From positions 1 through 64,000 of the forward strand of contig CAMMQC010000001.1 in assembly GCA_946498975.1 (NCBI GenBank): a stretch of DNA of 64,000 nucleotides, in the 5' to 3' direction. Shown piece after piece: positions 6,321 to 34,630 of this stretch (its first letter is position 1; each line of letters starts with the position of its first letter). Origin of the DNA: an uncultured Mycoplasmatota bacterium. Its GTDB lineage: Bacteria; Bacillota_I; Bacilli_A; RF39; UBA660. The position numbers and the translations under genes are program-made. The notes beneath the pieces are model-generated. The model was given only the letters and a program-made list of their open reading frames with translations, ran no database searches and was not told the DNA's origin.

Positions 6321-8444
6321 TTATCTTTCTACTTCTACAAGTTCATATACTTCAATGATATCTCCTTCTTTATAATCTTGGAAATTATCTAAAGTAAGTC
6401 CACAATCATGATCTTTAGACATTTCTTTAACCCCGTCTTTTTCATGTTGAAGTGACTTTATAGAGCCATTATAAATTACTATACTATCTCTTACTACTCT
6501 AGCTTTATCATTATTTTTAATAGTACCAGAAGTTACATGGCAACCTGCTATCATACCAACTTTAGAAAATTTAAATAGTTGACGTATCTCAGCAGTACCA
6601 GTAACTTTTTCTTCATAAATAGGCTCTAACATACCTTTCATAGCTTTTTCCATATCTTCTACTAATTTATAGATAATATCATAAATTCTAATTTCGATAC
6701 TATATTGTTTAGCCATATCTAATACTTTATTATTTCCTCTAACATTAAAACCTATTATTAGAGCATTAGAAGCGGATGCTAGGACAATATCACTTTCTGT
6801 AATACCACCAACTGCTCCTCTAATAACATTTATTTTAACTCCTTCTACTTCTATTTTTTCTAGTGAAGATTTTACTGCTTCTAAACTACCATTAGTATCT
6901 GTTTTTAAGACTACATTTATCTCTTTAAGGCCTTCATTTATCTTACCGAATAACTCTTCTAGACTCATACCAGTTCTATTAGTATCAGCATCTTTTTCTC
7001 TTAAGGCTCTATCACTTGCTATTTGTTTAGCTTGTTTTTCAGTTTCAAATGCCATGAATTTATCTCCAGCACTTGGAACACTAGATAGTCCTGTTATCTC
7101 TACTGGCATAGATGGAGGAGCAGTAGTTATGTTTCTTCCTAAATCATCTTTAAGCGTTCTAACCTTACCAAAAGCTGTTCCTACAACAATAGGATCACCT
7201 AATCTTAAAGTACCATTAGAAATAAGTAAAGTTGCAACTGCTCCTACATGTTTATCCATTTTACTTTCAAGGACAGCCCCAGTTGCATAACGATTAGGAT
7301 TAGCTTTTAATTCTTGCATTTCAGCAATTAATAGAATATTTTCTAATAATTCATCAACACCCTCACCTGTTTTAGCAGATATCTTAGTTACAATAGTATC
7401 TCCACCCCATTCTTCTGGAGTAAGTCCTGCTTCTACAAGTCCTGTCATAACTCTATCTATATTAGCTTCAGGTTTATCTATTTTATTTATGCATACAATA
7501 ATAGGAACACCTGCTGCTTTAGCATGATCAATTGCTTCTTTAGTTTGAGGCATTATACCATCATCTGCTGCTACTATAATGATAACTATATCAGTAACAC
7601 TAGCACCTCTTGCTCTCATCTCTGTAAAAGCAGCATGTCCTGGAGTATCTATAAAGGTTATCTTTTTACCATTACATTCTACTTGATAAGCACCTATTTC
7701 TTGAGTAATACCACCAGCTTCTCCACTTGCAACATTACTTTTTCTAATATAATCAAGAAGTGTTGTTTTACCATGATCAACATGTCCCATTATAGTTACA
7801 ACCGGAGGACGTTCTACTAAATCTTCTTCTCTATCTTCTATTTCATAATTTTCAAAGTTAGAAATGTCAGCTTGTTCTTCTTTTTTAACTGTTTTATTAT
7901 AATCTAGAGCGATTAATTCAACAGTATCAAAACTAACACTATTATTAACAGTAGCCATTATTCCTAATCCCATTAATTTTTTAATAATTTCCCCAGTAGA
8001 AACATCTAAAAGATTAGCTAAATCTGATACTGTCATACCTTCTTTATATAGTAAAACATTCTCATCTACTACTTGCTCATTACTTTGTAACTTCTCTTTA
8101 TGTTTATATATCTTCTTTCTTTCTTGTTTAAAGTTACTCTTATCTTTCTCTTGCTTCTTAGCTTTTTTAACCTTACTTGTTTTAACTAGATTATCATTAG
8201 TAAGATTAGATTCATATGCTATTTGTTCTGCTTTCTCATCTAAATTATAATCATTAAGCATCTCTTCATCAGGATTAGTTTCTACATAATCTTCTTCATC
8301 TTGAAAAGAATTATCTAAAAGTATTACTTCATCATCACTAAGAACTCTATCTAAATCACTTGTATCCATAGCAAGACTTTCCATATGTTTAACTATATCT
8401 TCCACACTTCTACTAATATCTTCTGCATATTCTTTTATTGTCAT
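6321..8444 (-). CDS. infB: Translation initiation factor IF-2
   Basis: [13 protein letters not shown]-domain, 707 aa, follows nusA-ylxR. Confidence 0.9.
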
Positions 8445-8453
8445 AAAATCACC

Positions 8454-8714
8454 TCACTCTAATATTTTTCTTATTTCATCATATACCTCATTACTAATAT
8501 TACATTCTAATTTTCTCTCTAAGCTTTTTTTCTTAATCGCTTCTTCTAAGACTTTTACATCTCTTTTAATATATGCACCTCTACCGTTCATTTTTCCTGT
8601 TAAATCAACTTTAACTTCTCCATCTTTACTTCTAACTATTCTAAGTAGTTCACGTTTATCTAATTTTTCTCCTGTTACTACACAACTTCTAAGAGGAATT
8701 TTTCTTGTTTTCAT
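8454..8714 (-). CDS. ylxR: YlxR/DUF448 RNA-binding protein
   Basis: 86 aa with KIPLRSCVVTGEKLDKRELLRIV, conserved between nusA and infB. Confidence 0.7.
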   Translation of the reverse strand: MKTRKIPLRSCVVTGEKLDKRELLRIVRSKDGEVKVDLTGKMNGRGAYIKRDVKVLEEAIKKKSLERKLECNISNEVYDEIRKILE

Positions 8715-8723
8715 AACTACCTC

Positions 8724-9938
8724 CTATTCTGATTTTATACTAATACCCATTTCCTTAGCTTGCTCACTAGTTTTAATATCAATTTTATATTTAGTAAGTC
8801 TAGTAGCAAGTTTAGCATTAAGACCTTTTCTACCTATAGCAAGTGAGAAATTATCACCATCTGCTATTACTAAAGCTTCCCTCTTCTTAGGATCAGTAAT
8901 TAATACTGTTAAATCTTTAGCAGGACTTAAAGCATTTTCTATAAATACTGCAGGATCACTATCGTATTTAACAATATCTACTTTCTCACCATTAAGCTCT
9001 GTAATGATATTGGCAATACGGCTACCTCTTTCTCCAATACATGCTCCAATAGGATCCACTTTAGGGTTTTCTGAATATACTGCTACTTTACTTCTAACAC
9101 CTGCTTCTCTTGCTACACTATATAGAAGCACTGTACCATCAACTAGTTCTGGTATTTCACTTTCAAATAATCTTTTAACAAAGCCAAAATGCCTTCTACT
9201 AAGTAGTACAAGTAAGCTTCTACCATTATTATCTACTTTAGTAACATAAACTTTAATCTGACTACCCATTTCAATATGTTCACCTGGTATAATATCTTTC
9301 TTAGGTAAAATACCATTAGTACGTCCTAAGTCAATAAAGTAGTTATCTGTATCTTCTAGTGCAACTGTACCAACAAGTAATTCATCTTGTTTATCTCCAA
9401 ACTCATCAGTAATACTAGAGCGTTCTGCTTCTCTAATCTTTTGAATAACAACTTGTTTAGCAGTACTTGCTGCAACTCTACCAAAGTCTTTAGGAGTAAC
9501 TTCAGTATCAATAGTATCTCCAACATTAACAGTTTTATCTAACTTTCTAGCATCACTAAGTTTAATCTCAGTACCTGGATTAAAGAAACTAATCTTTTCT
9601 TCTTCTTCATCCTTTTCCTTAGCTTTTTCTTCTTCTTTAAACTCTTTTTCACTTATTTCTGTATCAAGATTTTCATCTTCTGCATAACGTTCAAATAAAG
9701 CATCTTCATACTCTTCTTTAGTCATTTTATCATCAGGTACAACAGTAAGATAAGAATATACTTTTATATCTCCATTATTTTCATTAATTAAGACTTTTAC
9801 ATTATTATTTTTACTTTTAGCATTCTTCTTATAAGCACTAGTTAAAGCATTTCTCATCGCTTCAAAGATAATTTCTTTATCTATATGTTTTTCTTTAACT
9901 ACTAAGTCAACTGCTTTAAGAAATTCTTTTCCATTCAT
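8724..9938 (-). CDS. nusA: Transcription termination/antitermination factor NusA, with an acidic insert after the N-terminal domain
   Basis: N-terminal domain, S1 and KH regions recognisable (GRTNGILPKKDIIPGE; IGACIGERGSRIANI). Confidence 0.85.
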   Translation of the reverse strand: MNGKEFLKAVDLVVKEKHIDKEIIFEAMRNALTSAYKKNAKSKNNNVKVLINENNGDIKVYSYLTVVPDDKMTKEEYEDALFERYAEDENLDTEISEKEFKEEEKAKEKDEEEEKISFFNPGTEIKLSDARKLDKTVNVGDTIDTEVTPKDFGRVAASTAKQVVIQKIREAERSSITDEFGDKQDELLVGTVALEDTDNYFIDLGRTNGILPKKDIIPGEHIEMGSQIKVYVTKVDNNGRSLLVLLSRRHFGFVKRLFESEIPELVDGTVLLYSVAREAGVRSKVAVYSENPKVDPIGACIGERGSRIANIITELNGEKVDIVKYDSDPAVFIENALSPAKDLTVLITDPKKREALVIADGDNFSLAIGRKGLNAKLATRLTKYKIDIKTSEQAKEMGISIKSE

Positions 9939-9939
9939 T

Positions 9940-10188
9940 TTACATATCTCCTTTCTCTTTAGAATGTATATCTAATACATCTATATCATTACATAAGTTA
10001 TTATCATCCATAATAGGATTAATAATTTCAGTTGCCTCTGTTATTTTATTAACATCGATTATCTCTTCACTATCAAGTTCAATATTTAATGTTTTAACCC
10101 CTTCTTCAGTAGAATAATAAACACTACTTACAAATAGCCCTAAGTCTTTAATTTTATCATCTACTAAAGCTTTTACTTTATTTTCCAT
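9940..10188 (-). CDS. rimP: RimP-like ribosome maturation factor, only N-terminal domain length (82 aa)
   Basis: Position immediately upstream of nusA and weak N-terminal RimP similarity. C-terminal Sm-like domain absent. Confidence 0.45.
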   Translation of the reverse strand: MENKVKALVDDKIKDLGLFVSSVYYSTEEGVKTLNIELDSEEIIDVNKITEATEIINPIMDDNNLCNDIDVLDIHSKEKGDM

Positions 10189-10270
10189 AATACCTCCTTA
10201 CAAACTAAAGAGCGAAGTTTTTTAAACTTCACTCCTTTCTTGGAACTAATTATACTATATAAAAATAGTT

Positions 10271-10299
10271 TTGTCAAAACAGTTATTTAATGATATTAT
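10271..10299 (+). promoter_or_regulatory. Sigma-A-type promoter candidate (TTGTCA, 17 bp, TATTAT) for the CPBP protease gene
   Basis: -35 TTGTCA at 10271-10276, 17-bp spacer, -10 TATTAT at 10294-10299, about 20 bp before RBS AGGTGA and ATG at 10320. Confidence 0.4.
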
Positions 10300-10319
10300 T
10301 ATATAGTAGGTGATGACAA

Positions 10320-11003
10320 ATGAAAAAAGAACGAGTATTAGAAATATGTAAAGGATTAATAACATTTCTTATATTTTATTTTAGCAGTTATTTACAAGTA
10401 ATACCAATTGCCTTATTTAATATTAATGTTAATAATTATACAGCAAGTGATTTAGCGATTGTTAATACTTTTACTGATTTAATATTAGTATTAATATTAG
10501 TAGTTCTATATTTTAAAGAGTTAAAAAAAGAATTTAAGACTTTTAAAAATAGTTGGAAATTAAGTATGGATACTGCTTTTAAGTACTGGTTTATAGGTCT
10601 TATGATTATGTGTATTTCTAATGTAGCGATAGGTTTAATTACTGATTTAAGTACTTCTAGTAACGAAGCAGCAGTACAGACTTTAGTTAGTTCTAATCCA
10701 TATTTAATGTTATTTACAGCAGGTATACTTGCACCAATAGCAGAAGAGATAACATTTAGAAAAGGTGTATCTAAGATATTTAAGAATAAATGGGTATATG
10801 CAACTGCTTCTGGATTAATATTTGGTCTATTACATGTAATAGGTAGTGGTAATATTTTAGAGTACTTATATGTTATTCCTTATGGAAGTCTAGGTTTCTT
10901 CTTTGCTTTAACTTATTATGATACTAAAAGTATTTATCCATCTATTATAATGCATGCTATACATAATTCTGCTTTAATAGTTTTATCAATTATAACATTT
11001 TAA
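10320..11003 (+). CDS. CPBP (CAAX/Abi) family intramembrane metalloprotease
   Basis: Multi-TM protein with EEITFRKGV, FGLLHV and MHAIHN motifs. Confidence 0.75.
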   Translation: MKKERVLEICKGLITFLIFYFSSYLQVIPIALFNINVNNYTASDLAIVNTFTDLILVLILVVLYFKELKKEFKTFKNSWKLSMDTAFKYWFIGLMIMCISNVAIGLITDLSTSSNEAAVQTLVSSNPYLMLFTAGILAPIAEEITFRKGVSKIFKNKWVYATASGLIFGLLHVIGSGNILEYLYVIPYGSLGFFFALTYYDTKSIYPSIIMHAIHNSALIVLSIITF

Positions 11004-17329: not shown

Positions 17330-20300
17330 CTACTCTACTGATTTTAATGAATCTATCATATCTATTCTTCTTAAGATAAAATATGTTATTACTTGAACTA
17401 TAACACTAAATACTATAATAATTATAAATGATAGAACATAACTTAATGGTTTAATTGTCTTAATAAATAGTATTTCATCAGTCTCTGCTATCATTAAGAT
17501 AAAGGTATTTAAAGAAAAGCCTAAGAATATTCCCACTATAATACCTACTATAGTTAGAATAATAGTTTCCCTATATACATAACTAGATACTTCTTTATCT
17601 CTAAAGCCTAAGACCTTTAGAGTCGCTATCTCTCTTTTTCTTTCATTGATATTAATAATTGTTAGATTATATAAAACTGTTATAGCAAGAAAACTAGAAA
17701 ATGCTATTATTAGATAGACTATATTATTCATACCAGCGATAATATCATTAAACATTTCCATATTATCATCAGTATACTGTATCGCTCCAAAGTATCCAGT
17801 ATCTAATAGATTATTAGATAGTTTTTCTTCATTAGTAGAATCTTTTAGATTAACAAGATAACTATTAAACTCGTCATCATTAAATATCTCTTCATAATAA
17901 GTATTATTCATATACATAAAATTACTTATATAGTTTTTACATATTCCTTTTACTTTAACAATAAATAATTCATTATCACTATTTCTAATACTAATATTCT
18001 CTCCTGCTTTAGCATTTAATAAATCAGCCATCTTTTCTGTAATAATAACCCCATCATCGCTTAAGTTTAAATCACTTCCATCAACAGACTTTAAAGTTAC
18101 ATAATCGTTAATCTTTTCATCATTCATAAAGGCATTTAAAGTAAAGTCTAAATTCTTATTATTCGCTTTAAAAGTAAAACTAGATATATTAGTATTTATA
18201 TAATTAGTTATATCATTATCGCTTAAAGATTTAGTAACATCATCTTCATTAACATCATCTTCATTAACATCATCATTTAAGACTAAAGTTGCATCATAAT
18301 GAGTTATTTCTCCATACTGTATTTCAAGTAAATCACTAAGACTATCTTTTATACCAAAACCTGTAAGAAGTAAAGCAGTACATCCTGCAATACCTAAAAC
18401 AGTCATAAAGATTCTTTTCTTGTATCTAAATAAATTACGTAAAGTTATCTTCCAAGAAAATGATAAATGTCTCCAAAATGGTTTAATTCTCTCTAATAAT
18501 ATCTTTTTACCATTCTTAGGAGATTCTGGTCTTAATATAGTTGCAGGTGCTAATTTAAAGTCTTTAATAAGAGTAATAAATACTACTAAACTCATTAAGA
18601 TAATTGTTGTTAAGACAATGATTAGACAAGCATATGGATTAGCATAAGTAGATAGTTCTGGTATTGTAAAGGATGCAGAATACACTGTATAAAGTATTCT
18701 TGGTATTAAAGTATAACCAATACTTAGTCCTATAACAAGACCTAAAACACAAGCGATAAAAACATATAGTAAATAACTAAAGGCAATGGTAGATTTTCTA
18801 ATACCTAAAGATATAAAAGCCCCTATCTCACTTCTTTCTTCTTCTATCATTCTATTCATAGTATTAAAAGCCATAAGAAATGCTATTAAAATAAAGAATA
18901 TTGGAAATACGGCAGCGATAGAATCTACTTTAGTAGCACTTTCATAAAAACTAGTATAACCTGTTAAATCTTCTCTAGTTAATAAATACCAAACAGGTTT
19001 CTCTATATTTTGAATCTCATTTTTAGCATCATTTATCTCATTCTCATAATTAGAAACTTCTTCTAAGTATAGATTATAGTTAGTATTATATTCATCATAA
19101 CCCTTTTCTAATTCAATATAACCATTATCTATTTCTCTTTTAGCACTATTCAATTCTTTTAAAGCTTTACTATATTCATTATTCCAAGTACTTAAAGAAC
19201 TATTTAAAGTATTTTCTTGTTCTATTAAAGTATTATTAGTACTTATTAATGCCTCAATATTAGTTTTATTATTTTTAAGTTCATTAAGTCTAGCATTTAA
19301 TGTTTCATATAAACTATCACTAGGATCAAGTCCTTCTAACTGTTTTTCTAACTCTGTAATAGTAGCATTTATTGTATCAAGTGTAGGCCCTAAACTATCT
19401 ACTGTAAGCCCTACACTACTTAAAGCATTATTAAACTCTGTCTTAGCATTTTCTAAAGCACTAAAACCATTATTAAGTTCTGATTCTGTAGACTCCTTAG
19501 TCTTATTTAAAGTATTTAAATTACTGTTATATTCTTCTAATCCTTCATCAAGTTTTATTTTATTAGAATTTAACTCAGTTAAAGCATCATTAAACTTAGT
19601 TTCATTTTCACTCTTTATCCTATTAAGTTCATTCTCTGCTTCTACTACTTTATCCATCGCTTCTTTTAGAATTTCTTCATATCTAGCTGTCTCCCTTAAA
19701 GGTTTTAACTTTTGTAATTTCTTATTTACTTTACTTATAATTTCATCATAACTATCACTATAAGATAATTCTTCTTTAGCATTATCTACTATTAGATAAA
19801 CTTCTGTATAATAATCTAATTTAAAGTTATCTTTAGGAACATATAACAAACTATCAAGTTTACCATCACCTACTGAAGACAAGCCTTTATTTTCATAAAT
19901 ATAACTACTACTATTAATAGTTCCTACTATTTTACAAGTATTATTTTCAAGATATGTATCATCTTCTATTGTAACATTATCTCCTATTTTAAATGATTCA
20001 TCTTCACCAAGACATTCACTATTACTTTTAGGCATTCTACCATCTACTAATGTTACTTTACTAATATCTGATAATGCACTAACTTTAACTGCATCACCAT
20101 CTATTAGAGTGTCAATTGAGTAAGTTCCTTCTATTTCTTTTATACCATCTATTTCTTCTAAAGATTTAATATCATCATCTGTAAGACCCATAGTACTAAC
20201 TATCTTAAAGTCATAAAGATTAGTCTCATCATAATAATTATCTAAAGTCTTAATCATATCACTAGCAGTTTCTCTAACTCCTGCAAAGAAAGAAGTACCT

Positions 20301-20386
20301 AATATTACAATAAGGATTAAAGATAAGAATCTTCCTTTAGACTTCCATATTTTCCTAAAACTATTCTTAAAGATTAACATCACCAA
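17330..20386 (-). CDS. ABC transporter permease, FtsX/MacB family, with a very large extracellular coiled-coil domain (1018 aa)
   Basis: Two FtsX-like 4-TM modules separated and preceded by long coiled-coil regions. Overlaps the upstream ATPase gene. Confidence 0.7.
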   Translation of the reverse strand: MVMLIFKNSFRKIWKSKGRFLSLILIVILGTSFFAGVRETASDMIKTLDNYYDETNLYDFKIVSTMGLTDDDIKSLEEIDGIKEIEGTYSIDTLIDGDAVKVSALSDISKVTLVDGRMPKSNSECLGEDESFKIGDNVTIEDDTYLENNTCKIVGTINSSSYIYENKGLSSVGDGKLDSLLYVPKDNFKLDYYTEVYLIVDNAKEELSYSDSYDEIISKVNKKLQKLKPLRETARYEEILKEAMDKVVEAENELNRIKSENETKFNDALTELNSNKIKLDEGLEEYNSNLNTLNKTKESTESELNNGFSALENAKTEFNNALSSVGLTVDSLGPTLDTINATITELEKQLEGLDPSDSLYETLNARLNELKNNKTNIEALISTNNTLIEQENTLNSSLSTWNNEYSKALKELNSAKREIDNGYIELEKGYDEYNTNYNLYLEEVSNYENEINDAKNEIQNIEKPVWYLLTREDLTGYTSFYESATKVDSIAAVFPIFFILIAFLMAFNTMNRMIEEERSEIGAFISLGIRKSTIAFSYLLYVFIACVLGLVIGLSIGYTLIPRILYTVYSASFTIPELSTYANPYACLIIVLTTIILMSLVVFITLIKDFKLAPATILRPESPKNGKKILLERIKPFWRHLSFSWKITLRNLFRYKKRIFMTVLGIAGCTALLLTGFGIKDSLSDLLEIQYGEITHYDATLVLNDDVNEDDVNEDDVTKSLSDNDITNYINTNISSFTFKANNKNLDFTLNAFMNDEKINDYVTLKSVDGSDLNLSDDGVIITEKMADLLNAKAGENISIRNSDNELFIVKVKGICKNYISNFMYMNNTYYEEIFNDDEFNSYLVNLKDSTNEEKLSNNLLDTGYFGAIQYTDDNMEMFNDIIAGMNNIVYLIIAFSSFLAITVLYNLTIININERKREIATLKVLGFRDKEVSSYVYRETIILTIVGIIVGIFLGFSLNTFILMIAETDEILFIKTIKPLSYVLSFIIIIVFSVIVQVITYFILRRIDMIDSLKSVE

Positions 20387-24882: not shown

Positions 24883-25575
24883 TTACGAATACTTAACTAT
24901 ATTCTTTAACCTCCTAATCACTTTCTTTTCTATTCTTGATATATAAGACTGACTAATACCAAGTAGTTCTGCAACTTCTTTCTGGGTTAATTCATTATGT
25001 CCCATTAGTCCATATCTTAGTATGATAATATCTCTATCTCTTGGATTTAACTTCATAACTTCATCTAGCATTAATTTTTTATCTGTCTCTTCTTCTATTC
25101 CTTTAGTTACAATATCTGCATCTGTTCCTAAGATATCTTCTAGATGTAATTCATTCCCTTCTGCATCTAAACTAAGAGAGGCATCTATACTTACTTCTGT
25201 TTTAGATTTCTTAATCTTTCTTAAGTACATTAATATCTCATTATCAATACAACGTGATGCATAAGTTGCAAGCTTAATATTTTTATCTGGTTTAAAAGTA
25301 TTGATACCTTTAATAAGCCCAATTGTCCCTATACTAACTAAATCTTCTAAATCTACTTTCGTATTTTCATACTTTTTAGCAAGAAATACTACTAATCTTA
25401 GATTATGTTCAATTAAAACATCTCTTGCATGTATATCCCCATCCATAGCCATTACAAGATATGCTTCTTCATCTTCTTTTGATAATGGTTCTGGTAAGAT
25501 ATCACTACTACCTACATAAAATATTTCACATGATTTATCAAGTAAAAATGCTACTAAGTAAAGTAAACTAATCAT
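24883..25575 (-). CDS. sigE: Sporulation sigma factor pro-sigma-E
   Basis: Pro-sequence ending ...YVGSSDILPEPLSKEDE, then HARDVLIEHNLRLVVFLAKKY...GTIGLIKGINTF...ISQSYISRIEKK. Near-collinear with SigE. Confidence 0.85.
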   Translation of the reverse strand: MISLLYLVAFLLDKSCEIFYVGSSDILPEPLSKEDEEAYLVMAMDGDIHARDVLIEHNLRLVVFLAKKYENTKVDLEDLVSIGTIGLIKGINTFKPDKNIKLATYASRCIDNEILMYLRKIKKSKTEVSIDASLSLDAEGNELHLEDILGTDADIVTKGIEEETDKKLMLDEVMKLNPRDRDIIILRYGLMGHNELTQKEVAELLGISQSYISRIEKKVIRRLKNIVKYS

Positions 25576-26369
25576 TTTAATTCCTCCTCTATTATATTAG
25601 GGAGTATACAAGAAGCTCCCTTTATTTCTATATTCTTAGGACTAACTCCTAATAGGTATTTATTAGTAATTAAATTATCATCTATCCTTAATTCCTCTAT
25701 TTCTATACATCTAAGTAAACTATTAGAATCTACTGTTTTAAAGGGCACTAAAATAGACTCTTCTAAACTAAGATTAATTTCACTAGAATTAATAAGAATA
25801 ACTCCCCTTCTCTTATAGGGATCTTTAATATTATTACCTGTATCTAAGAATCCTAATGTATTAATAGTACCTTTTTTACACCTAATAGATACACTATGAA
25901 GTAGTTCTCTTTTCTTCTTTTCATTTTTCATCATTTTATGATATAGATAAAAGATTATAGGACTACTTATTAAGATAATTATTAAGTTTAAACTAGTCCC
26001 ATCATGGATAAAAATAAAACCTTTTTGTTTATAACTAAACTGATTATTTAAAAAGTAGATAAGTCCTCCTAAGATAATACTATTACCATATAGACTCTTT
26101 ATAAGAGAAAAAAATAGTTCCTTAGATGTTATTTTAAAATCAACTATAATCATAATAATACTTATTACTACTTTAAAAAGAAATAAAGAAAAATTATTTA
26201 AGGGTAGGAACAAAAGAAATGTACTAAGACTTCCTAGAAATGAAGATATAAGTAATCTTCTTTTTTTAGAAAAGACTTTACACTCTATACTAACTGTCAT
26301 TAAAAGGAGTAAATCAAACATGAAATTAATAAAGAATATTAGATCTAAATATACTTTCATTCCTACCAC
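25572..26369 (-). CDS. spoIIGA: Sigma-E processing aspartic peptidase SpoIIGA
   Basis: Five N-terminal TM segments plus GFLDTGN aspartyl protease motif. Directly upstream of sigE with 4-bp overlap. Confidence 0.75.
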   Translation of the reverse strand: MVGMKVYLDLIFFINFMFDLLLLMTVSIECKVFSKKRRLLISSFLGSLSTFLLFLPLNNFSLFLFKVVISIIMIIVDFKITSKELFFSLIKSLYGNSIILGGLIYFLNNQFSYKQKGFIFIHDGTSLNLIIILISSPIIFYLYHKMMKNEKKKRELLHSVSIRCKKGTINTLGFLDTGNNIKDPYKRRGVILINSSEINLSLEESILVPFKTVDSNSLLRCIEIEELRIDDNLITNKYLLGVSPKNIEIKGASCILPNIIEEELK

Positions 26370-26415: not shown

Positions 26416-28536
26416 TTAAATATTATTTTTTTCCAATACTGTTAGGACTTTATATCTTGTACAAGTTTTAATTTTATTGTTAGTAAAGTCAAACATAACC
26501 ATACCGTTTACCCCGGTATTATAAATTAAAGAACCATTCTCCTCTAATCTTTCTACTACCTCTTTATGAGGATGATTAAATTTATTATCTACCCCTGCAG
26601 ATATTAAGGCATAAGTAGGATTAATAACATCTATAAACTCTTCACTACTACTAGTTCTAGAACCATGATGTCCTACTTTTAGTATTGTAATATCTGAAAG
26701 ATTATAATTATCTAAAATATATTTTTCACTTTTAATACTTGCATCTCCCATAAATAATAACTTCTTATTATCGATAGTACTATATAAAACTAAACTACTA
26801 TCATTTTCATCAGTATAAGTATTAGAGATAACTAAAAAGTTAAAGTTACCTAATCTGAAACTATCTCCTTCTCTTAATTTATAATGACTAGAAGAATTAA
26901 CCCATATTTTTTTCTCTAATGAATTTAAATCATTTCCATTAAAGAAAACAGTTCCCACATCTATCTCATCCATTATAGTTAAAGCTTCCCCAGCATGATC
27001 ATAATCTCCATGAGTTATGACTAAGTAATCTAATTTTGTTATACCTAACTGATTTAGAAAGGTAACTAAATATTTACCCTGGCTACTTTTTTCATACTGC
27101 ATCCAATCTTCTTGATAATAAGACATAACTCCTCCTGTATCTATTAACATAGCCTTATTATTAGATGTTAATAAAAAAGAATCTCCTTGTCCTACATCAA
27201 TCATATATAAAGCATCTTTTGGAAATACTTTAGGATAAGAGTAATGGACTACTATCATTAGTAATATTAAGTACAGAAATAACTTCTTTTTTATCTTTAA
27301 GAATAAATAACTAAATATAAGTACAAAGTATAATAAATAATAAACTAAATTGAATCTTGCTAGAGTTATATACCCTATATTAATGTGAGATAAAAATAAT
27401 ACACTTCCTTCAAAGATATTTATAAAAAACTCTAAGATAAAAGATAAATGCGGTATAAAGAAGCATGCAATTGATAAAGGAAATATAATAACATTAATAA
27501 AAGGAACATAGAAGAGATTATAAATTATACTAAGAGGATTAATATAAGAAAAATGATATAAAGAAATGGGTAAACTAACTAAGAAGCTTACCCATGATAC
27601 CTCTAATAAGTCTATTATCTTTCCTTTACTCTTCTTATTATTCATGTATAGTATTAAAGTACAACTTATAACTGTAGAGTACTGGAATCCTACATCGAAT
27701 ATGTAATAGGGATTTATTAAGAAAAGAATACTTAAAGATAATAGAATTAAGAAAAGAGGTCTTATATTGAAGTCAAAAGTGTTATTAATAGAAAATACTA
27801 AACTAAAAATCAAGGCTCTATCAATCGCTGCACAGTCTTCTATTATTAAATAATAACTAAACAAAAGACAAATAGCAAAAAATAAATTTTTGAGATTAAA
27901 CGATTTCCTACGTAGAGTAATAATTGAAATTAGAAAACTTATTTGTGTTCCTGATAGAGCGAAAAGATGGGAGATTCCAAGTTTTCTGAAATCTTCTTCT
28001 AAAGTAGTATCAAAGGAAGTATCATCTCCTAAGAAGAAGACTTTTATATAACTTCCTACTTTATTATCTGCTATACTACTTCTAACAGTATTTCTAATAC
28101 TATTTAAAATATTACTATTTTTTGTTTTAATAGTAAAATCAGATACTTTCATTATATAAAAAATCTTTTGGTATTTTAGGTAGGTAGGATAGGAAAAACC
28201 ATAAAAATTTTGACTGGAAATGGGTCTTTTTAACTCTCCTTCTAAAGTAAGAGTATCACCTAATGAAAGTTCTTTTTTTGTTTTATTTAATTCTTCTTCG
28301 GTATCGAAGTAATAAGTGGCGATAAGTTTTTCTTTAGTTTTAAGTGTCAGTGTCATTTTATTACCTTGATATTTTATAGATAAAACTTCTCCATCTATTT
28401 TAGTTTCACTCCCTTCAAATGAAGAAGTAAAATCTATATTTATATAAATAACAAGATAAGTTAAACTAATAATAAATAACGTAATATAAATAGATTTAAA
28501 TAGTAATATTTTCCTTAATCTGATCAAAGATAGCAT
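26416..28536 (-). CDS. comEC: DNA internalisation competence protein ComEC/Rec2
   Basis: Multi-TM competence domain and C-terminal metallo-beta-lactamase motifs IDVGQGDS, ITHGDYDHAGE. Confidence 0.8.
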   Translation of the reverse strand: MLSLIRLRKILLFKSIYITLFIISLTYLVIYINIDFTSSFEGSETKIDGEVLSIKYQGNKMTLTLKTKEKLIATYYFDTEEELNKTKKELSLGDTLTLEGELKRPISSQNFYGFSYPTYLKYQKIFYIMKVSDFTIKTKNSNILNSIRNTVRSSIADNKVGSYIKVFFLGDDTSFDTTLEEDFRKLGISHLFALSGTQISFLISIITLRRKSFNLKNLFFAICLLFSYYLIIEDCAAIDRALIFSLVFSINNTFDFNIRPLFLILLSLSILFLINPYYIFDVGFQYSTVISCTLILYMNNKKSKGKIIDLLEVSWVSFLVSLPISLYHFSYINPLSIIYNLFYVPFINVIIFPLSIACFFIPHLSFILEFFINIFEGSVLFLSHINIGYITLARFNLVYYLLYFVLIFSYLFLKIKKKLFLYLILLMIVVHYSYPKVFPKDALYMIDVGQGDSFLLTSNNKAMLIDTGGVMSYYQEDWMQYEKSSQGKYLVTFLNQLGITKLDYLVITHGDYDHAGEALTIMDEIDVGTVFFNGNDLNSLEKKIWVNSSSHYKLREGDSFRLGNFNFLVISNTYTDENDSSLVLYSTIDNKKLLFMGDASIKSEKYILDNYNLSDITILKVGHHGSRTSSSEEFIDVINPTYALISAGVDNKFNHPHKEVVERLEENGSLIYNTGVNGMVMFDFTNNKIKTCTRYKVLTVLEKNNI

Positions 28537-29191
28537 CTCCTATACCACTAACTTCTTTTAACTCTTCAATATTTTGAAATGCTCCTACTTCTTCCCGATA
28601 CTCTATTATAGCTTGTGCTTTTGATTCACCAATACCAGGAAGTGTCATTAACTCATCAAGTGTTGCAGTATTAAGTGATACTTTACCACTAATAACTACA
28701 CTACTAGAACTAGTATCATCAGTACTATCTTTAATACAAGCATCGTTTTGAATACCATTTTGTTTCAAACAGGCTTCTTGTTCTATTTCTTCCTTTTCTA
28801 TAGTTTCTGTGAAAGCCTCTACTTCATTATAACTATAAACAATAATAACCATTTCATCTTCAACTTTCTTAGAAAGATTCAAAACTGAAGTATCTGCAAC
28901 TTCCGTTAAATCACCTGCTAATCTAATGACATCAATAACTCTACTTCCTTCTTTAACAGTATATATTCCGGGATTAATAACTTCTCCTTTAATATCTACT
29001 TGATAGTAAACCTCTTCTTCCTCCTCTTCATCCTTTTTAGTATCTTTCTTTGTATTTAAAACTATATTTTCCTCTACTTTATTTTCCGCAGTATAATTTT
29101 TATAAATAAAGAAAGAGCCTATGACTAATAGCAAAACAAGTCCTAAACACACTAAAATAATTTGTTTTTTATGACGATAAGTAAAAGTCAT
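28496..29191 (-). CDS. comEA: Competence protein ComEA (SLBB + tandem helix-hairpin-helix). Start placed at MTFTY.
   Basis: TM helix. SLBB-like VDIKGEVINPGIYTVKEG. C-terminal SLNTATLDELMTLPGIGESKAQAIIEYRE. Confidence 0.75.
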   Translation of the reverse strand: MTFTYRHKKQIILVCLGLVLLLVIGSFFIYKNYTAENKVEENIVLNTKKDTKKDEEEEEEVYYQVDIKGEVINPGIYTVKEGSRVIDVIRLAGDLTEVADTSVLNLSKKVEDEMVIIVYSYNEVEAFTETIEKEEIEQEACLKQNGIQNDACIKDSTDDTSSSSVVISGKVSLNTATLDELMTLPGIGESKAQAIIEYREEVGAFQNIEELKEVSGIGDAIFDQIKENITI

Positions 29192-29265
29192 TTCTATTAC
29201 CTCCTTTCCAGTTATGATACTAACAGAAAGGAAAAATAATTGCAAAAAGGCAATTTTTAAAATTC

Positions 29266-29357: not shown

Positions 29358-30497
29358 TTAACTTTTTTTATCTCTTAGTCTATTTTCTATATTAACACGT
29401 TGAACTATTGCTAATGAAACCATTAAACACAAAGTAAAACTTCCTCCATAACTTAAGAAAGGTAGTGGAACTCCTGTCATTGGCATAAGTCCAAATAATC
29501 CCATTAAATTAACAATAACATGTAAAAAGATATAGACCGCAACTCCATAGCAAAGTAAAGCCCCTCTATTGGTATAACTTTCTCTACCTATCTTTAATAT
29601 TCTATAAAGTAAATAAAGATAAGCAAGGATGATAGCAATTCCTACAATAAGACCTAATTCTTCGACTACAACTGCAAAGATAAAGTCAGTATATGGATAT
29701 GGTAAATATAAATATTTCTGAGTACTATTACCAAGCCCAATTCCTGTAAGTCCTCCATTATTAATAGCAATATAACCATTACATACTTGGTTACCTGTAT
29801 CAAGAAGTCTATCACAAGGCCTTGTAAAATTAAATCTTTCTAACTGTCTTACTTGTAAAATACTTCCACCAGTCATAATAAGAACTGCACCTACTACTAA
29901 ACACATACCAAAGAAAAGAAGAAGTACTTTAAATTTAATTGATTTTGAAACAGGTGAAGAAAAAAAGATTAAACCAGTAAGTGCTGCAAAGATAATAGCA
30001 GTTCCTAAATCTGGTTGTAACATAATTAAGAAAGTTATTACTACTCCTATTATTAAAGGTATAATCGCTATAAAGAAATTATCTAAACGTTTCTCATGTA
30101 CTTCATAAAATCTTGCCATAAAAACTATCATAATTATTTTAATAAATTCACTAGGTTGTAAGGTAAAAGGACCTATAGGAATCCAACTAACAGCATAGTT
30201 TGTCGCTTTACCATAAATAAGTAATAGAATAAGTACTGCTACAAAAACTATTAAAAGAATATTTGACATTATACCATAAAATTTAGTATTAAATTTAACC
30301 ATAAATATACAAAAAATAAAACTTACTAACAAGAACATCCCTTGTCTTAAGAAATAAGCATAAGGGCTTCCCCCATTCATATAGGATGTAACATTACTAG
30401 CAGAAAATATCATTATAAGTCCTAATACGAAAAGAATTAAGGTTAGAATAAATAGAGGTTTATCTATATTTTTTATTATGTCCTTAAATTTAGTCAT
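29358..30497 (-). CDS. spoVE: SEDS-family peptidoglycan glycosyltransferase (FtsW/RodA/SpoVE)
   Basis: 10-TM SEDS protein. Lies in a sporulation/competence neighbourhood. Exact paralog (FtsW vs SpoVE) not resolvable by eye. Confidence 0.7.
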   Translation of the reverse strand: MTKFKDIIKNIDKPLFILTLILFVLGLIMIFSASNVTSYMNGGSPYAYFLRQGMFLLVSFIFCIFMVKFNTKFYGIMSNILLIVFVAVLILLLIYGKATNYAVSWIPIGPFTLQPSEFIKIIMIVFMARFYEVHEKRLDNFFIAIIPLIIGVVITFLIMLQPDLGTAIIFAALTGLIFFSSPVSKSIKFKVLLLFFGMCLVVGAVLIMTGGSILQVRQLERFNFTRPCDRLLDTGNQVCNGYIAINNGGLTGIGLGNSTQKYLYLPYPYTDFIFAVVVEELGLIVGIAIILAYLYLLYRILKIGRESYTNRGALLCYGVAVYIFLHVIVNLMGLFGLMPMTGVPLPFLSYGGSFTLCLMVSLAIVQRVNIENRLRDKKS

Positions 30498-30637
30498 TAT
30501 TCTAACCCTCCTTATCTTTAGTCTTTTTCTTTAAGAATACCACAAATTTCAGCATGTTTAAAGTAACCTAGTCAAATTCATTAACAATTTGACATATTTT
30601 TTCATATCTTATATTAGAAAAAGGAGGTTTTTAACTA

Positions 30638-30816
30638 TGTATTATTATGGTGGTGGATCATTTAATTCATTTCCAAGTTGCGGATGCGGTAATCAATGGT
30701 TCTTCCCTAGTTGCAATTGTGGCTGGGGATGGAATAACAACAATAACAATTATGCTATAATTTTAGTTTTATTTATACTATTGGTTATAGTAATTGGCAC
30801 AAGAATTTCAAGATAA
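30638..30816 (+). CDS. Small Gly/Cys/Trp/Asn-rich protein with C-terminal TM anchor (59 aa)
   Basis: Strong RBS AAAGGAGG 8 nt before ATG at 30638. MYYYGGGSFNSFPSCGCGNQWFFPSCNCGWGWNNNNNN followed by hydrophobic helix. Terminator follows. Confidence 0.5.
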
Positions 30817-30820
30817 AAAA

Positions 30821-30858
30821 CTGGGTAGAAATGAATAATTTCTACTCAGTTTTATTTA
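30821..30858. terminator. Hairpin terminator CTGGGTAGAAAT-gaataa-ATTTCTACTCAG followed by TTTTATTT, between convergent genes
   Basis: 11/12-bp stem. T-run on plus strand. Confidence 0.55.
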
Positions 30859-30875
30859 CAAATATTAAATAAATT

Positions 30876-33020
30876 TTAATATAATATATAGCTTTTACCA
30901 CTTGCTTCTTTAACTTGTTGTTTAGAAATCATATATTCCCTTAATAATTTAAGTAACGTTTTAATATCTATTCCCACATATTTACTAACTTCTTCCATTG
31001 CTTTTTCTTCATTATACCCAAATTCTAAATACTTTCTTAATAATCTTAAACAAGATTCTTCTATTGTTTCTTCGTTTGAATACACCATTTCTTCATATAT
31101 TGTTTTTTGAATCACTTCTTCTTCTACATTAATATTGGTATCTTTAATTCCCCTATCAAATATACTTGTTTCTTCTAAAAAATCACTTCTAAAAATTGAA
31201 TATTTTTTATTTCTGTGGCTTCTTTTTATCAATCTTATCGCATTTCTTATAATTATAGCTTTTATAGCAATTTTTATTTGCTCATCAGTTAAATAATTTT
31301 TTTCAATATTGCCACATTTTTCTATTATGTACATTATAGAATCACTTACAATATCATCTTTTATATTATCACATTTGTATTTTGCAGTTAACTTATTACT
31401 AATTTTAGTACCACTTTCTATCATATACTGTGCATATTTTTCAACAAATTTTTTACTACATTTTATATATCCTATCCATAGTTGACCCTTTATCTCTAAA
31501 CTATTCAATAAAGAACTTACATTTTTAACACTTTTAAAGCCAAATATATATTGCAATACAACTTCTAATTCTATATCATATTTTTTAGCTAATTCTTCTA
31601 ATTCAGTTTTTGAATAATACTTTGATTCAATTAATACATGTTTTACTCGATTAATTTTCTTTTGTATTAAATAATCTCTTACAATTGCTCGTGTACCTTT
31701 ATTTCGTATGCTATTATAATTAGAATGACTTATACCCAAAATACTTGCAAACTCTACTTCACTTAATTTATCTTTATATATCCTATATAAACTTAAAAAT
31801 TCTTTGTAGTCTATTACTTGCCCTATTTTAACTTTTTTTAAGACTTCTTCCTTGATTTTTTCTTTGCCTTTTAAATTTATGCTTTTTTGCTCATTTTTTA
31901 ATATCCTTGCTCGTGTACCTTTTTTTCGCATACTTTCATAATTGGAATAATTTATGTTTAGGATGCTTGCAAATTCTACTTCACTTAATTTATCTTCATA
32001 TGACTTATATAAACTTAAAAATTCTTTATAATTTGTTAGATGTCCAGGTTTTACTTTTTTTAAGACCTCTTCCTTGATTTTTTCCTTATCTTCTAATTTT
32101 ATACTTCTTTGTTCGTTTTTTAATACCCTTACATGTGTACCTCTATTTCGCATACTATTATAATTGGAATAATTTATGTTTAGGATGCTTGCAAACTCTA
32201 CTTCGCTTAATTTATCTTCATATGACTTATATAAACTTAAAAATTCTTTGTAATTTATTAGTTGACTAGGTTTTACTTTTTTTAAGACTTCTTCCTTAAT
32301 TTTTTCCTTGTCTTCTAACTCTATACTTTTTTGCTCTTTTTTTAATATCCTTGCTCGTGTACCTTTATTTCGCATATTATTATAATTAGAATAACCTATA
32401 CTTAAAATATTTGCAAACTCTACTTCACTTAATTTATCTTCGTATGGCTCATATAAACTTAAAAATTCTTTATAATTTATTAGTTGTCCAGGTTTTACTT
32501 TTTTTAATACCTCTTCCTTGATTTTTTCCTTGTCTTCTAACTTTATACTTCTTTGCTCATTTTTTAATAACCTTGCTCGTGTACCTTTTTTTCGCATACT
32601 ATTATAATTGGAATAATTTATGTTTAGGATGTTTGCAAATTCTACTTCACTTAATTTGTCTTTATATGACTTATATAAACTTAAAAATTCTTTATAATTT
32701 ATTAGTTGTCCGGGTTTTACTTTTTTTAAGACTTCTTCCTTGATTTTTTCCTTGTCTTCTAACTTTATACTTCTTTGTTCACTTTTTAATACCCTTACAT
32801 GTGTACCTCTATTTCTCATATTATTATGATTGTTATAACTTATGTTTAGAATGCTTGCAAACTCTACTTCACTTAATTTGTCTTCATATAACTTATATAA
32901 ATTTAAAAATTCTTTATAATTTATTAGTTGTCCAGGTTTTACTTTTTTTAAGACTTCTTCTTTAATTTTCTCGTTTTCTTTTAAAATGTTATCCATTATT
33001 TTCCTCTTTATTAAATTCAT
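30876..33020 (-). CDS. Sigma-70-like protein: six tandem 74-aa HTH-like repeat modules, then a region 2-like and a region 4-like C-terminal segment
   Basis: Repeats KIKEEVLKKVKPGQLINYKEFLSLYKSYEDKLSEVEFASILNINYSNYNSMRNRGTHVRVLKNEQRSIKLEDKE x6. C-terminus has DIVSDSIMYIIEKCGNIEKNY...IKAIIIRNAIRLIKRSHRNKK (r2-like) and ESCLRLLRKYLEFGYNEEKAMEEVSKYVGIDIKTLLKLLREYM (r4-like). Confidence 0.4.
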   Translation of the reverse strand: MNLIKRKIMDNILKENEKIKEEVLKKVKPGQLINYKEFLNLYKLYEDKLSEVEFASILNISYNNHNNMRNRGTHVRVLKSEQRSIKLEDKEKIKEEVLKKVKPGQLINYKEFLSLYKSYKDKLSEVEFANILNINYSNYNSMRKKGTRARLLKNEQRSIKLEDKEKIKEEVLKKVKPGQLINYKEFLSLYEPYEDKLSEVEFANILSIGYSNYNNMRNKGTRARILKKEQKSIELEDKEKIKEEVLKKVKPSQLINYKEFLSLYKSYEDKLSEVEFASILNINYSNYNSMRNRGTHVRVLKNEQRSIKLEDKEKIKEEVLKKVKPGHLTNYKEFLSLYKSYEDKLSEVEFASILNINYSNYESMRKKGTRARILKNEQKSINLKGKEKIKEEVLKKVKIGQVIDYKEFLSLYRIYKDKLSEVEFASILGISHSNYNSIRNKGTRAIVRDYLIQKKINRVKHVLIESKYYSKTELEELAKKYDIELEVVLQYIFGFKSVKNVSSLLNSLEIKGQLWIGYIKCSKKFVEKYAQYMIESGTKISNKLTAKYKCDNIKDDIVSDSIMYIIEKCGNIEKNYLTDEQIKIAIKAIIIRNAIRLIKRSHRNKKYSIFRSDFLEETSIFDRGIKDTNINVEEEVIQKTIYEEMVYSNEETIEESCLRLLRKYLEFGYNEEKAMEEVSKYVGIDIKTLLKLLREYMISKQQVKEASGKSYILY
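31700..32970. repeat. Six near-identical 222-bp tandem direct repeats inside the coding sequence
   Basis: Recurring DNA blocks, for example ...cttgctcgtgtacctttttttcgcatact... and ...gcttgcaaactctacttcacttaatttatcttcatatgacttatataaacttaaaaattctttataatt..., at roughly 222-bp period across 31.7-33.0 kb. Confidence 0.8.
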
Positions 33021-33300
33021 TCAAAATTATGTTGTTATTATACATATTTTTATTTTAGGTGTCAATTGCACAAGAATAAAGTTATTGAGTCCCAATGAAT
33101 TTAATAAATTTGTTTAGATATCAATAAAAAAATGATAGTTATACTAAGCAATATAATTTTATTGATTTCTAGTGATTTTTATTGCTCAGTCTTGAACTTT
33201 AATTCAAAAAACTGAAACTCAAAACTGAAACTCAAAACTACTTATCCTTTCTTTTTTTTTAATTTTGTGTTAAAATATAGCAAGAAATGGGGTATTTTAG

Positions 33301-33849
33301 ATGTTAAGAAATAAAGATATATTAGATGAAAAAGACAAAAGATTAAGATTAGTTAGTAAAGATGTTACTTTTCCTTTAAGTAAAGACGATTTAAAGACTA
33401 TTGATTTAATAGTAGAATATCTAACTAATAGTCAAATAGAAAGGTTATCAGAAAAATATAATTTAAGACCTGGTATGGGTATGGCTGCAATTCAATTAGG
33501 AATTCCTAAAAGATATTTAGTAATTGTTCATGAAATAGATGAAGAAGAGTTTGATACTTATATTATTTGTAATCCTAAAATTATTAGTAATTCGGCTGAA
33601 AAGATTTATGTAGAAATGGGAGAAGGATGTTTATCTGTTAATCGTGAAGTTGATGGTATTGTACCAAGATATGCTAGAGTTACTGTAGAAGGATATGATA
33701 CTAAAGGTAATAAGATAAGAGTAAGAGCAAGAGAAGAACTTGCTATTGCCTTCCAACATGAAATAGATCATTTAAATGGTATTATGTTTACAGATTATAT
33801 TGATCCTAAAAACCCATTTAAAGATAGTGATAAATATAGACCAATTTAA
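33301..33849 (+). CDS. def: Peptide deformylase
   Basis: GMGMAAIQLG, EGCLSV, QHEIDHLNG motifs. Confidence 0.85.
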   Translation: MLRNKDILDEKDKRLRLVSKDVTFPLSKDDLKTIDLIVEYLTNSQIERLSEKYNLRPGMGMAAIQLGIPKRYLVIVHEIDEEEFDTYIICNPKIISNSAEKIYVEMGEGCLSVNREVDGIVPRYARVTVEGYDTKGNKIRVRAREELAIAFQHEIDHLNGIMFTDYIDPKNPFKDSDKYRPI

Positions 33850-33868
33850 AAACAGGACGAACCTGTTT

Positions 33869-34630
33869 TTATTTTATATCTTTTTTCTTGCCATAATATA
33901 AAGCTAGTACTTGAAGCTTATCATCATCACTTTCTAAATCAGTAATTTCTTGTAAAATTTTGGCGAACTCATCAAGGACTTCTTCATAAGTAAGTTTAGC
34001 AAGTACTTCTCCATTAAGTACTTTATCTTTATCTTCCTTACTTTTATATAGAGCATTACTTGCAATATCTAAAGTTTCCTCTTCTTTTTCTAAATAAGCA
34101 TGAAAGTGCCCTCTTCCTAGTAAATTATATTCAAAAGATAAAATAGCATTATAGTCTCTGCACTCTTTAATAAAATCAAAAGTTCTATCAAAACATTCTC
34201 CGCTTAATTTTTTATCAAATATATAATCAACTTTAGTATGTTTAAAGAAATCGCTAGCTTTATAAACAGAAATAACTCCGCATTTGCTTTTTAAAATATA
34301 TTTAGAATCACACCTATCTTTACTTATAATACCAGGCCATAACAAAGTATAAGGGCTATCATTTAAAAGATAAGAAATAGCACTTTGAATAGAAGAATTA
34401 TAATTAATGTCATATCTATGTAAAATTTCATCTATAACAGCTTCTTTATTTCTCTGTTTTAAGCTCATATAATTTAAAATAAGATTATTAAGAGGATTAT
34501 CTTTATCGTAAAGATGATAAATCCCCAATTCTTTACATTCTTCTAAAATAGCTTCTGCTCTTTTCTTATTTAAACTTAAATAGAACTTTTCTGTATCTGC
34601 ATAATATTTATCTAATAAATTGGTACTCAT
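33869..34630 (-). CDS. Hypothetical protein
   Basis: 253-aa ORF. No confident domain. Confidence 0.35.
   Translation of the reverse strand: MSTNLLDKYYADTEKFYLSLNKKRAEAILEECKELGIYHLYDKDNPLNNLILNYMSLKQRNKEAVIDEILHRYDINYNSSIQSAISYLLNDSPYTLLWPGIISKDRCDSKYILKSKCGVISVYKASDFFKHTKVDYIFDKKLSGECFDRTFDFIKECRDYNAILSFEYNLLGRGHFHAYLEKEEETLDIASNALYKSKEDKDKVLNGEVLAKLTYEEVLDEFAKILQEITDLESDDDKLQVLALYYGKKKDIK

Follow-up and report, generated by a model that had tools for sequence, protein, structure and literature searches.

Results

Six-Unit Array in a Single Open Reading Frame

The window analysed here is a stretch of 64,000 nucleotides (nt) from an uncultured Mycoplasmatota bacterium of the gut (assembly GCA_946498975.1, contig CAMMQC010000001.1), and the gene in question occupies a single minus-strand open reading frame (ORF) of 714 amino acids (aa) at 30876..33020, which joins a tandem array of modules to a sigma-like C-terminal part. 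Tandem Repeats Finder (TRF) revealed one array at 31685-32984, in frame within this ORF, with a period of 222, 5.9 copies, 87% matches, zero indels and a score of 1900; the runner-up in the whole 64-kb window scored 90. This agrees with the six in-frame 222-bp tandem copies that an earlier first-pass annotation of the locus had described.

The six 74-aa units begin at aa 18, 92, 166, 240, 314 and 388, corresponding to window positions 32969 down to 31638. TRF and unit comparison place unit 1 at 32748..32969, unit 2 at 32526..32747, unit 3 at 32304..32525, unit 4 at 32082..32303 and unit 5 at 31860..32081, all on the minus strand, with units 3 and 4 also covered by an AlphaFold2 model. Unit 6 (31638..31859, minus strand, from unit comparison) is divergent, its tail merging into the C-terminal domain, and is the only unit that shows positional orthology across species. 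Units 1-5 share 86-93% nt and 74-89% aa identity, and unit 6 shares 71-75% and 59-65%, respectively, with the other units; with a pairwise synonymous divergence (dS) of 0.13-0.66, the repeats are not 'near-identical' as first stated. The recent expansion proposed along with that label is unsupported because dS between units reaches about 0.5.

Between units, the ratio of nonsynonymous to synonymous divergence (dN/dS) is 0.15-0.71 with the minus strand as the coding strand, and the minus-strand frame is kept in 69 homologues. Two different in-frame 2-unit forms of 410 aa (P0075, P0077), found in the same genomic context as the 6-unit form, and several truncated versions within the 90% cluster of the window protein could be taken to mean that assembly produced the array artificially or that the ORF is decaying into a pseudogene. 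However, every unit is distinct, exact matches from unit to unit reach 49 bp at most, dN/dS is below 1 and orthologues at 53% identity likewise have six units. An identical 706-aa protein (P0074) is encoded on 4 contigs from at least 2 separate samples and a variant differing by one residue on 40 contigs; in all, the 6-unit form was found on at least 45 contigs and is dominant in the 90% cluster. SPAdes contigs are the source of the 2-unit forms, and coverage is as low as 3.3x and 7x on two of these contigs. The junctions of the 2-unit forms fall in the longest stretches common to the units, and the forms may reflect either true deletions or a collapse during assembly. Given the distinct units, the 49-bp longest match and the 6-unit protein in independent assemblies, the array is therefore no assembly artefact, and we regard both this explanation and that of a pseudogene as practically negligible. 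We conclude that the array is real and coding and that the ORF is intact and under purifying selection. Variation of copy number between strains, as suggested initially, is unproven in view of the prevalence of the 6-unit form and the possible collapse behind the 2-unit forms.

C-Terminal Sigma-Like Domain

The non-repeat C-terminal part comprises ~255 aa, including a ~60-aa helical module ahead of the sigma-like part. AlphaFold2 modelling on a 16-sequence C-terminal alignment gave an all-helical structure with a predicted local distance difference test (pLDDT) value of 81 and disorder at model residues 154-180. Four segments follow one another on the minus strand. The helical module (31455..31637; pLDDT ~90) carries a conserved G-K-x-W-I-G-K motif; next comes a sigma-2-like domain (31203..31454) with the signature (E/D)D-x-x-(Q/S)-(D/E)...G-D-I-E-K-N-F, in which N is invariant. 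An acidic linker (31065..31202), mostly disordered or of low confidence (pLDDT 33-63) and with a calculated net charge of about -8, leads to a sigma-4-like domain (30879..31064), modelled by AlphaFold2 as a three-helix helix-turn-helix (HTH) with a terminal beta-hairpin and aligned by hhalign to SigE region 4.2. In this last domain, the G of E-x-G-(Y/M/L) is nearly invariant.

Fold-level matches of the C-terminal domain were to E. coli sigma-E region 2, SigW, SigC, SigE and many more. When a profile of 122 family sequences was compared by hhalign with one of 87 SigE sequences, taken from the window and from fetched reference sigE loci, a probability of 77% and P = 2e-5 were obtained over 148 collinear columns, extending from region 2.1 to the region 4.2 HTH. 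The family motif (E/D)-D-x-x-(Q/S)-(D/E) aligns with D-L-x-Q-E of sigma region 2.1/2.2; the sigma-4-like helices align to SigE region 4.2, but the recognition helix is without the usual basic residues. This alignment-versus-alignment comparison replaced runs of the 16-sequence alignment against a single RpoE or a single SigE, which were collinear and non-significant (P ~0.15).

Among individual members compared with curated models, P0115 was the sole one to match TIGR02937 (sigma70-extracytoplasmic function, ECF; E = 2.9e-5, residues 56-185 on profile positions 5-124), with a score of 23.8 bits under the cut-off of 42.9. The same protein matched the RpoE-like model NF041236 from sigma-2 through sigma-4 (E = 8.8e-5), and P0110 gave a sub-threshold match to region 2 of TIGR02985. 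For a 31-sequence family profile, the best sequence match in the PDB was S. aureus SigB (E = 0.048). Pfam sigma models did not match the window protein or 16 + 31 + 10 family members, and curated sigma-4 models did not match the C-terminal HTH.

The C-terminal ~190 aa would form a highly divergent two-domain member of the sigma-70 superfamily with an ECF-like layout and no sigma-3 domain, and, going by the profile and fold comparisons, the domain is probably a remote relative of two-domain sigma factors. The region-2-like and region-4-like segments of the first-pass annotation hold at the level of fold and profile-profile comparison only, and its estimate of about 200 aa for the C-terminal part falls short of the ~255 aa determined here. 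An attempt to read the ~60-aa module as a degenerate repeat unit found no support (hhalign against the unit, P = 0.14).

Repeat Unit as Helix-Turn-Helix Module

AlphaFold2 modelling of two consecutive units, based on a 48-sequence alignment, yielded a pLDDT of 84 and a predicted template modelling score (pTM) of 0.48. In the model, each unit is built from one long and three short helices plus a two-residue strand pair. Confidence falls in the linker between units, which, together with the pTM of 0.48, suggests independent domains on a flexible string; the model indicates basic four-helix HTH-type modules with short flexible linkers. The units have a pI of 8.8-9.9, helix 4 and the next strand bearing the positive charge, and the whole protein has a net charge of +34 and a pI of 9.4.

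The unit segment sE.EFA.ILGIS..n aligned to the SigE region 4.2 HTH (hhalign, P = 2.8e-4, 23 columns), which bears out the HTH-like core resembling sigma region 4 that had been noticed at the outset. The segment also weakly matches Cro/C1 HTH families and phage 'transcriptional regulator' PHROGs. A single unit had no Pfam HTH match; HTH_26 was found weakly in 10 of the 48 di-units (best E = 6e-4) and HTH_3 and HTH_19 weakly in some units, none at the gathering score. A villin headpiece (VHP) match was discarded, its E of 6.6e-8 being the sum over repeats with no single stretch passing, as was a match to EF-hand/troponin C (E = 0.008), where the consensus loop K-G-Y-x-N-K-x-I-D-Y was read as being without acidic ligands. 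The VHP, EF-hand, FERM and Cas9_PI_C matches were all found to be summed sub-threshold matches to a repeated short motif.

Among units 1-5, the scaffold (positions 1-33) had a dN/dS of 0.13, against 1.42 for the predicted recognition helix and wing (positions 45-62), the latter segment containing 9 nonsynonymous variable codons versus 1 synonymous-only codon. Pooling 8 family genes, nonsynonymous/synonymous counts were 3.1-3.7 for the scaffold and 7.9 for the recognition helix. Such small samples do no more than suggest that the units within one protein differ mainly in the predicted recognition helix.

Protein Family and Array Turnover

Neither the whole protein nor a single unit nor the C-terminal part had a significant match in Pfam, NCBIfam or PDB sequences. 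A word-indexed search of 5.8 billion proteins returned 69 homologues, all unnamed and from metagenomes or metagenome-assembled genomes (MAGs), whose common plan is 2-11 units followed by the conserved ~255-aa domain. An exhaustive search with the C-terminal profile revealed ~312 clusters at 50% identity, 95 of them with E<=1e-30. Between 0 and 11 units were detected per cluster, the commonest numbers being 6, 3, 1, 5, 4 and 8; many apparent zero-unit forms start mid-unit and are truncated gene calls. The family thus ranges from one to eleven units, with apparent zero-unit forms being mostly truncated calls, and copy number varies widely between species.

Pfam gave nothing meaningful in 20 further family members. 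A word-index-limited profile search for the unit in other architectures returned only truncated or internally deleted family genes, and no description of such proteins was found in a full-text literature search. The view of the gene as an unusual regulator and candidate novel system is supported by these results: the family is undescribed and carries no annotation anywhere, and its architecture has a sigma-type core as its basis.

Units of one protein are 75-80% identical, versus 52-66% between the units of orthologues, which argues for arrays that turn over by unequal recombination or gene conversion, so that the number of modules differs between species. Some members have old, divergent units with 40-54% identity. 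Tandem paralogues were found at two loci, namely at L007 (6001-8628 and 9745-12369; 875 and 874 aa, 8 units in either protein, with a 152-aa gene of no annotation between the two) and at L009 (4061-5965 and 6001-8097; 634 and 698 aa with 5 and 6 units).

Three aberrant forms were observed beside these. In P0239 (156 aa; 18 contigs of up to 91 kb), unit 2 is joined straight to the last 15 residues; P0240 has two units and the sigma-4-like end only; and P0204 runs on into DnaQ-type exonuclease sequence. They may be decay products or assembly chimeras.

Gene Boundaries and Transcription Signals

The ORF list, together with the Shine-Dalgarno and promoter geometry, defines a minus-strand coding sequence of 706 aa plus stop at 30876..32996; translation from another ATG upstream, at 33020, would yield 714 aa. 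A Shine-Dalgarno sequence, AGAGGA, lies at 33002..33007 on the minus strand, 7 nt upstream of ATG 32996, and a perfect sigma-A-type promoter (TTGACA-17-TATAAT, 12/12) at 33037..33065 on the same strand. Since its -10 box ends just 17 nt ahead of ATG 33020, which would be left leaderless, and since the Shine-Dalgarno sequence precedes ATG 32996, this second ATG is probably the true start; database homologues begin at the second Met, too.

The gene is predicted to be transcribed from this consensus sigma-A promoter of its own, starting near 33030. A perfect sigma-A-type promoter was also found for the L001 orthologue, and the upstream sequences of three other family genes show -10 boxes close to consensus, which were read as extended -10 (TGn). 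At the other end, a hairpin with a 16-bp stem and U-runs on both strands (30817..30853; RNAfold, -19.6 kcal/mol on the plus strand and -13.8 kcal/mol on the minus strand) is a predicted bidirectional terminator for the gene and a convergent small ORF. No non-coding RNA match was returned by Rfam in 30300-33900.

This convergent ORF (30637-30816, plus strand) encodes 59 aa from an internal Met or 75 aa from TTG (MYYYGGGSFNSFPSCGCGNQWFFPSCNCGWGWNNNNNNYAIILVLFILLVIVIGTRISR); the head is rich in Gly/Cys/Asn/Trp and the tail is hydrophobic. Related genomes conserve this ORF, whose product may be similar to the very small YjcZ-type sporulation membrane proteins.

Single-Gene Insertion Relative to Related Species

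Relatives and empty sites were found by searching reference genomes with the SigE of the window. The nearest relatives by SigE are uncultured Bacilli, some labelled Tenericutes, including Candidatus Onthousia species (Bacilli incertae sedis), and one of them is a 1.52-Mb circular MAG. In a blastn comparison of the window with the related loci L011-L034, the flanks of the gene were 76-94% identical in 11 related species, and 30817-33241 was missing in 11/11. The junctions define a 2,425-bp insertion (30817..33241) made up of the terminator, whose hairpin marks the left end, the gene, the promoter and a 13-bp repeat. At the empty site, the stop TAA of the small ORF is followed by a hairpin (GAAAGG-TTAT-CCTTTC), a T-run and the def promoter; in the window, the 2,425 bp stand in place of the GAAAGG (5') arm, and the right (3') half of this ancestral terminator hairpin remains at 33242-33260. 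Parsimony favours a gain by insertion in the window lineage.

At the right edge of the insertion, TRF detected a perfect 13-bp tandem repeat, AAAACTGAAACTC, in 2.5 copies (33208..33239), which amounts to five AAACT pentamers at 6-7 bp spacing; the related AAAACTG(G/A)GTAG makes up both arms of the left-edge hairpin. The 13-bp repeat occurs neither elsewhere in the window nor upstream of the L001 orthologue and is, therefore, unsupported as a conserved binding target. No recombinase is encoded in the insert. None of 80 sigE loci from reference genomes (0/80) carries a family member, and a direct search of reference genomes with the window protein gave no match. The gene is an accessory single-gene cassette and not a core gene.

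The orthologue at 53% identity lies in the context smc-gene-pyrG-def-ftsW-spoIIGA-sigE, and the context acpS-gene-tatD was found in two other species; across six contexts, no conserved partner gene was found. At L003, the family gene (8001-9671) overlaps the start of a downstream tatD-type DNase gene (9668-10471) by 4 bp, an arrangement that suggests predicted co-transcription of the two. The gap between the family gene and the tatD-type gene at L009 is 15 bp.

The window has a G+C content of 22-31%, and its genes include smc, sigE, spoIIGA, comEC, comEA, an ftsW/spoVE-type gene, def and pheT. sigE and spoIIGA adjoin comEC and comEA (24883-26369 and 26416-29245, both on the minus strand), so that the organism looks like a member of a small-genome (relatives ~1.5 Mb), very AT-rich lineage that retains sporulation and DNA-uptake genes. 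A 253-aa ORF without a family match (33869-34630, minus strand) is missing or replaced in several related genomes, with blastn gaps at ~33850-34700 in L026 and L034 and a transglutaminase-like gene adjoining def in L124; it is a second presence/absence polymorphism next to the sigma-like gene. Further away, a 1018-aa ORF (17330-20386, minus strand) combines a weak match to SMC/Rad50-like coiled-coil (residues ~190-465) with a C-terminal match to FtsX/LolCE-type permeases, which is an unusual pairing.

Discussion

The closest known kind of protein is the ECF (group 4) sigma factor, exemplified by E. coli RpoE, M. tuberculosis SigH/SigK and B. subtilis SigW, and membership in this group follows from fold and profile-profile comparison and not from curated models. 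As a rule, ECF sigma factors regulate their own expression and come with an anti-sigma partner gene. The family described here differs in that it fails all Pfam and NCBIfam sigma thresholds, has an invariant G-D-I-E-K-N-F signature of its own and has a housekeeping-type promoter instead of autoregulation, with no anti-sigma neighbour; the window protein, in addition, carries the ~60-aa pre-module and a 450-aa N-terminal array. In the ECF reclassification paper, N-terminal extensions of ECF sigma factors are called rare and short, nothing like a tandem HTH array is listed, and extensions usually accompany the lack of an anti-sigma gene; the N-terminal pro-sequence of BldN described there is a precedent for N-terminal control (PMC7826278). 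The C-terminal extensions of ECF41/42/SnoaL, the BldN pro-sequence and the PhyR mimic are alike in that an extra domain on the same chain controls or re-purposes a sigma-type core, but the ECF41/42/SnoaL and BldN extensions are single domains or short peptides, and none is a variable tandem HTH array.

Regarding the array, tandem tri-helical DNA-binding repeats such as c-Myb R1R2R3, Myb/SANT-like and homeodomain-like folds and the three-repeat protein RecX may also be near. The unit motif s-E-x-E-F-A-x-I-L-G-I-S-x-x-n-y-x-x-i-k-x-g resembles helix 2-turn-helix 3 of the Cro/C1 (XRE) HTH; however, the matches are all below curated thresholds, and the helices flanking the HTH of the unit differ.

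The gene product most likely acts in the cytoplasm as a transcription protein that binds nucleic acid, and its family is undescribed. As to its mechanism, we tentatively favour an RNA-polymerase-associated transcription factor in which the array tethers the protein to DNA or targets it there. The sigma-like part would dock onto the RNA polymerase core, and the array would span a long stretch of DNA with one module per site; through this contact, the polymerase could be tethered, or promoter choice could gain in upstream specificity. Alternatively, the array might keep the sigma-like part inactive until its release or removal. The array itself would evolve by unequal recombination and gene conversion.

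Several observations weigh against such a role. No family member reaches the threshold of any curated sigma model, no evident conservation is seen of the aromatic and basic residues with which sigma regions 2.3/2.4 and 4.2 melt DNA and contact the -35 element, and the family has invariant residues (G, D, N, G) of its own. Moreover, the gene has a consensus housekeeping-type promoter here and no conserved neighbour, and TRF revealed no candidate DNA target array in the whole window.

Much of this evidence would suit a protein without sigma-factor activity that binds DNA as a regulator or is associated with the nucleoid, its sigma-like domain being degenerate and serving partner binding or oligomerisation. 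In PhyR, an ECF-like domain acts as a sigma mimic that titrates another protein, and one version of this alternative assumes a comparable mimic, with the basic array coating or bridging AT-rich DNA. The strong consensus promoter implies abundant constitutive expression; an anti-sigma partner and a conserved neighbour are both missing; the sigma-like domain, which fails every curated sigma model, is without the usual DNA-contact residues; and the strongly basic protein and its homogenised units suit low-specificity or repetitive binding. On the other hand, the sigma-2 to sigma-4 layout and the 2.1/2.2-like acidic motif are kept end to end over ~312 clusters, which argues for a retained sigma-type interaction surface, and the gene is missing from close relatives and is therefore not that of a core chromatin protein. 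We consider this alternative doubtful, albeit by no means negligible.

An accessory gene related to conflict, be it defence or a mobile element, is an unlikely explanation and is compatible with either mechanism, the RNA-polymerase-associated or the non-sigma one. Here, the array would serve to recognise DNA that is repeated or foreign, with the sigma-like part diverting RNA polymerase or blocking it, and the cassette would spread between related gut Bacilli. In keeping with this are the single-gene insertion missing from all 11 related species, the variable genomic contexts and tandem paralogues, the quick turnover of the array with diversification of the recognition helix, the many truncated or internally deleted alleles and a weak resemblance to an RpoE-like sigma model associated with CRISPR type III-E. 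Yet, there is no effector domain, no adjoining defence or mobility gene and no recombinase in the insert, and the acpS-gene-tatD position is stable across two species in one lineage. A phage origin was likewise rejected, as a motif scan of viral contigs yielded 34 loci with 0 family members and PHROG matches were only to generic HTH regulators.

A transposase or recombinase is barely credible as the gene product, as is a surface protein with repeats, for although short AAAACT-type repeats flank the insertion, Pfam, NCBIfam and PHROGs gave no transposase, recombinase or cell-wall-anchor match, the C-terminal domain is all-helical and sigma-like without catalytic-type invariant residues, and, by reading of the sequence, a signal peptide and an anchor motif are absent.

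Returning to the RNA-polymerase-associated factor, a more far-reaching version, which we regard as a rather remote prospect, is that of a modular, evolvable DNA-reading device. Each module would use its variable recognition helix to read a short DNA segment, a long composite upstream address would be set by how many modules there are and in what order, as reshuffled by unequal recombination, the sigma-like C-terminus would recruit the RNA polymerase core to this address, and the cassette, self-contained from promoter to terminator, would travel among gut Bacilli and Clostridia. Transcription activator-like effector (TALE) repeats offer an analogy only: they, too, are tandem and variable in copy number, with a conserved scaffold and with differences concentrated in the predicted reading element, but fold, repeat length and taxonomy are entirely different.

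If the C-terminal domain binds RNA polymerase, the family would represent a sigma-type factor whose DNA targeting is extended by one to eleven DNA-binding modules in tandem, an architecture that lies outside current sigma classifications because these start from the Pfam sigma models that the family misses. With its clear domain boundaries, usable models and the pair of insertion and empty site, the gene is a tractable target for DNA- and RNA-polymerase-binding tests. Even if it is not a sigma factor, it belongs to a sizeable unannotated family; if the proposed role is true, it would provide a natural example of promoter addressing via modular repeats and a new class of regulator in poorly known, small-genome, very AT-rich gut Bacillota.

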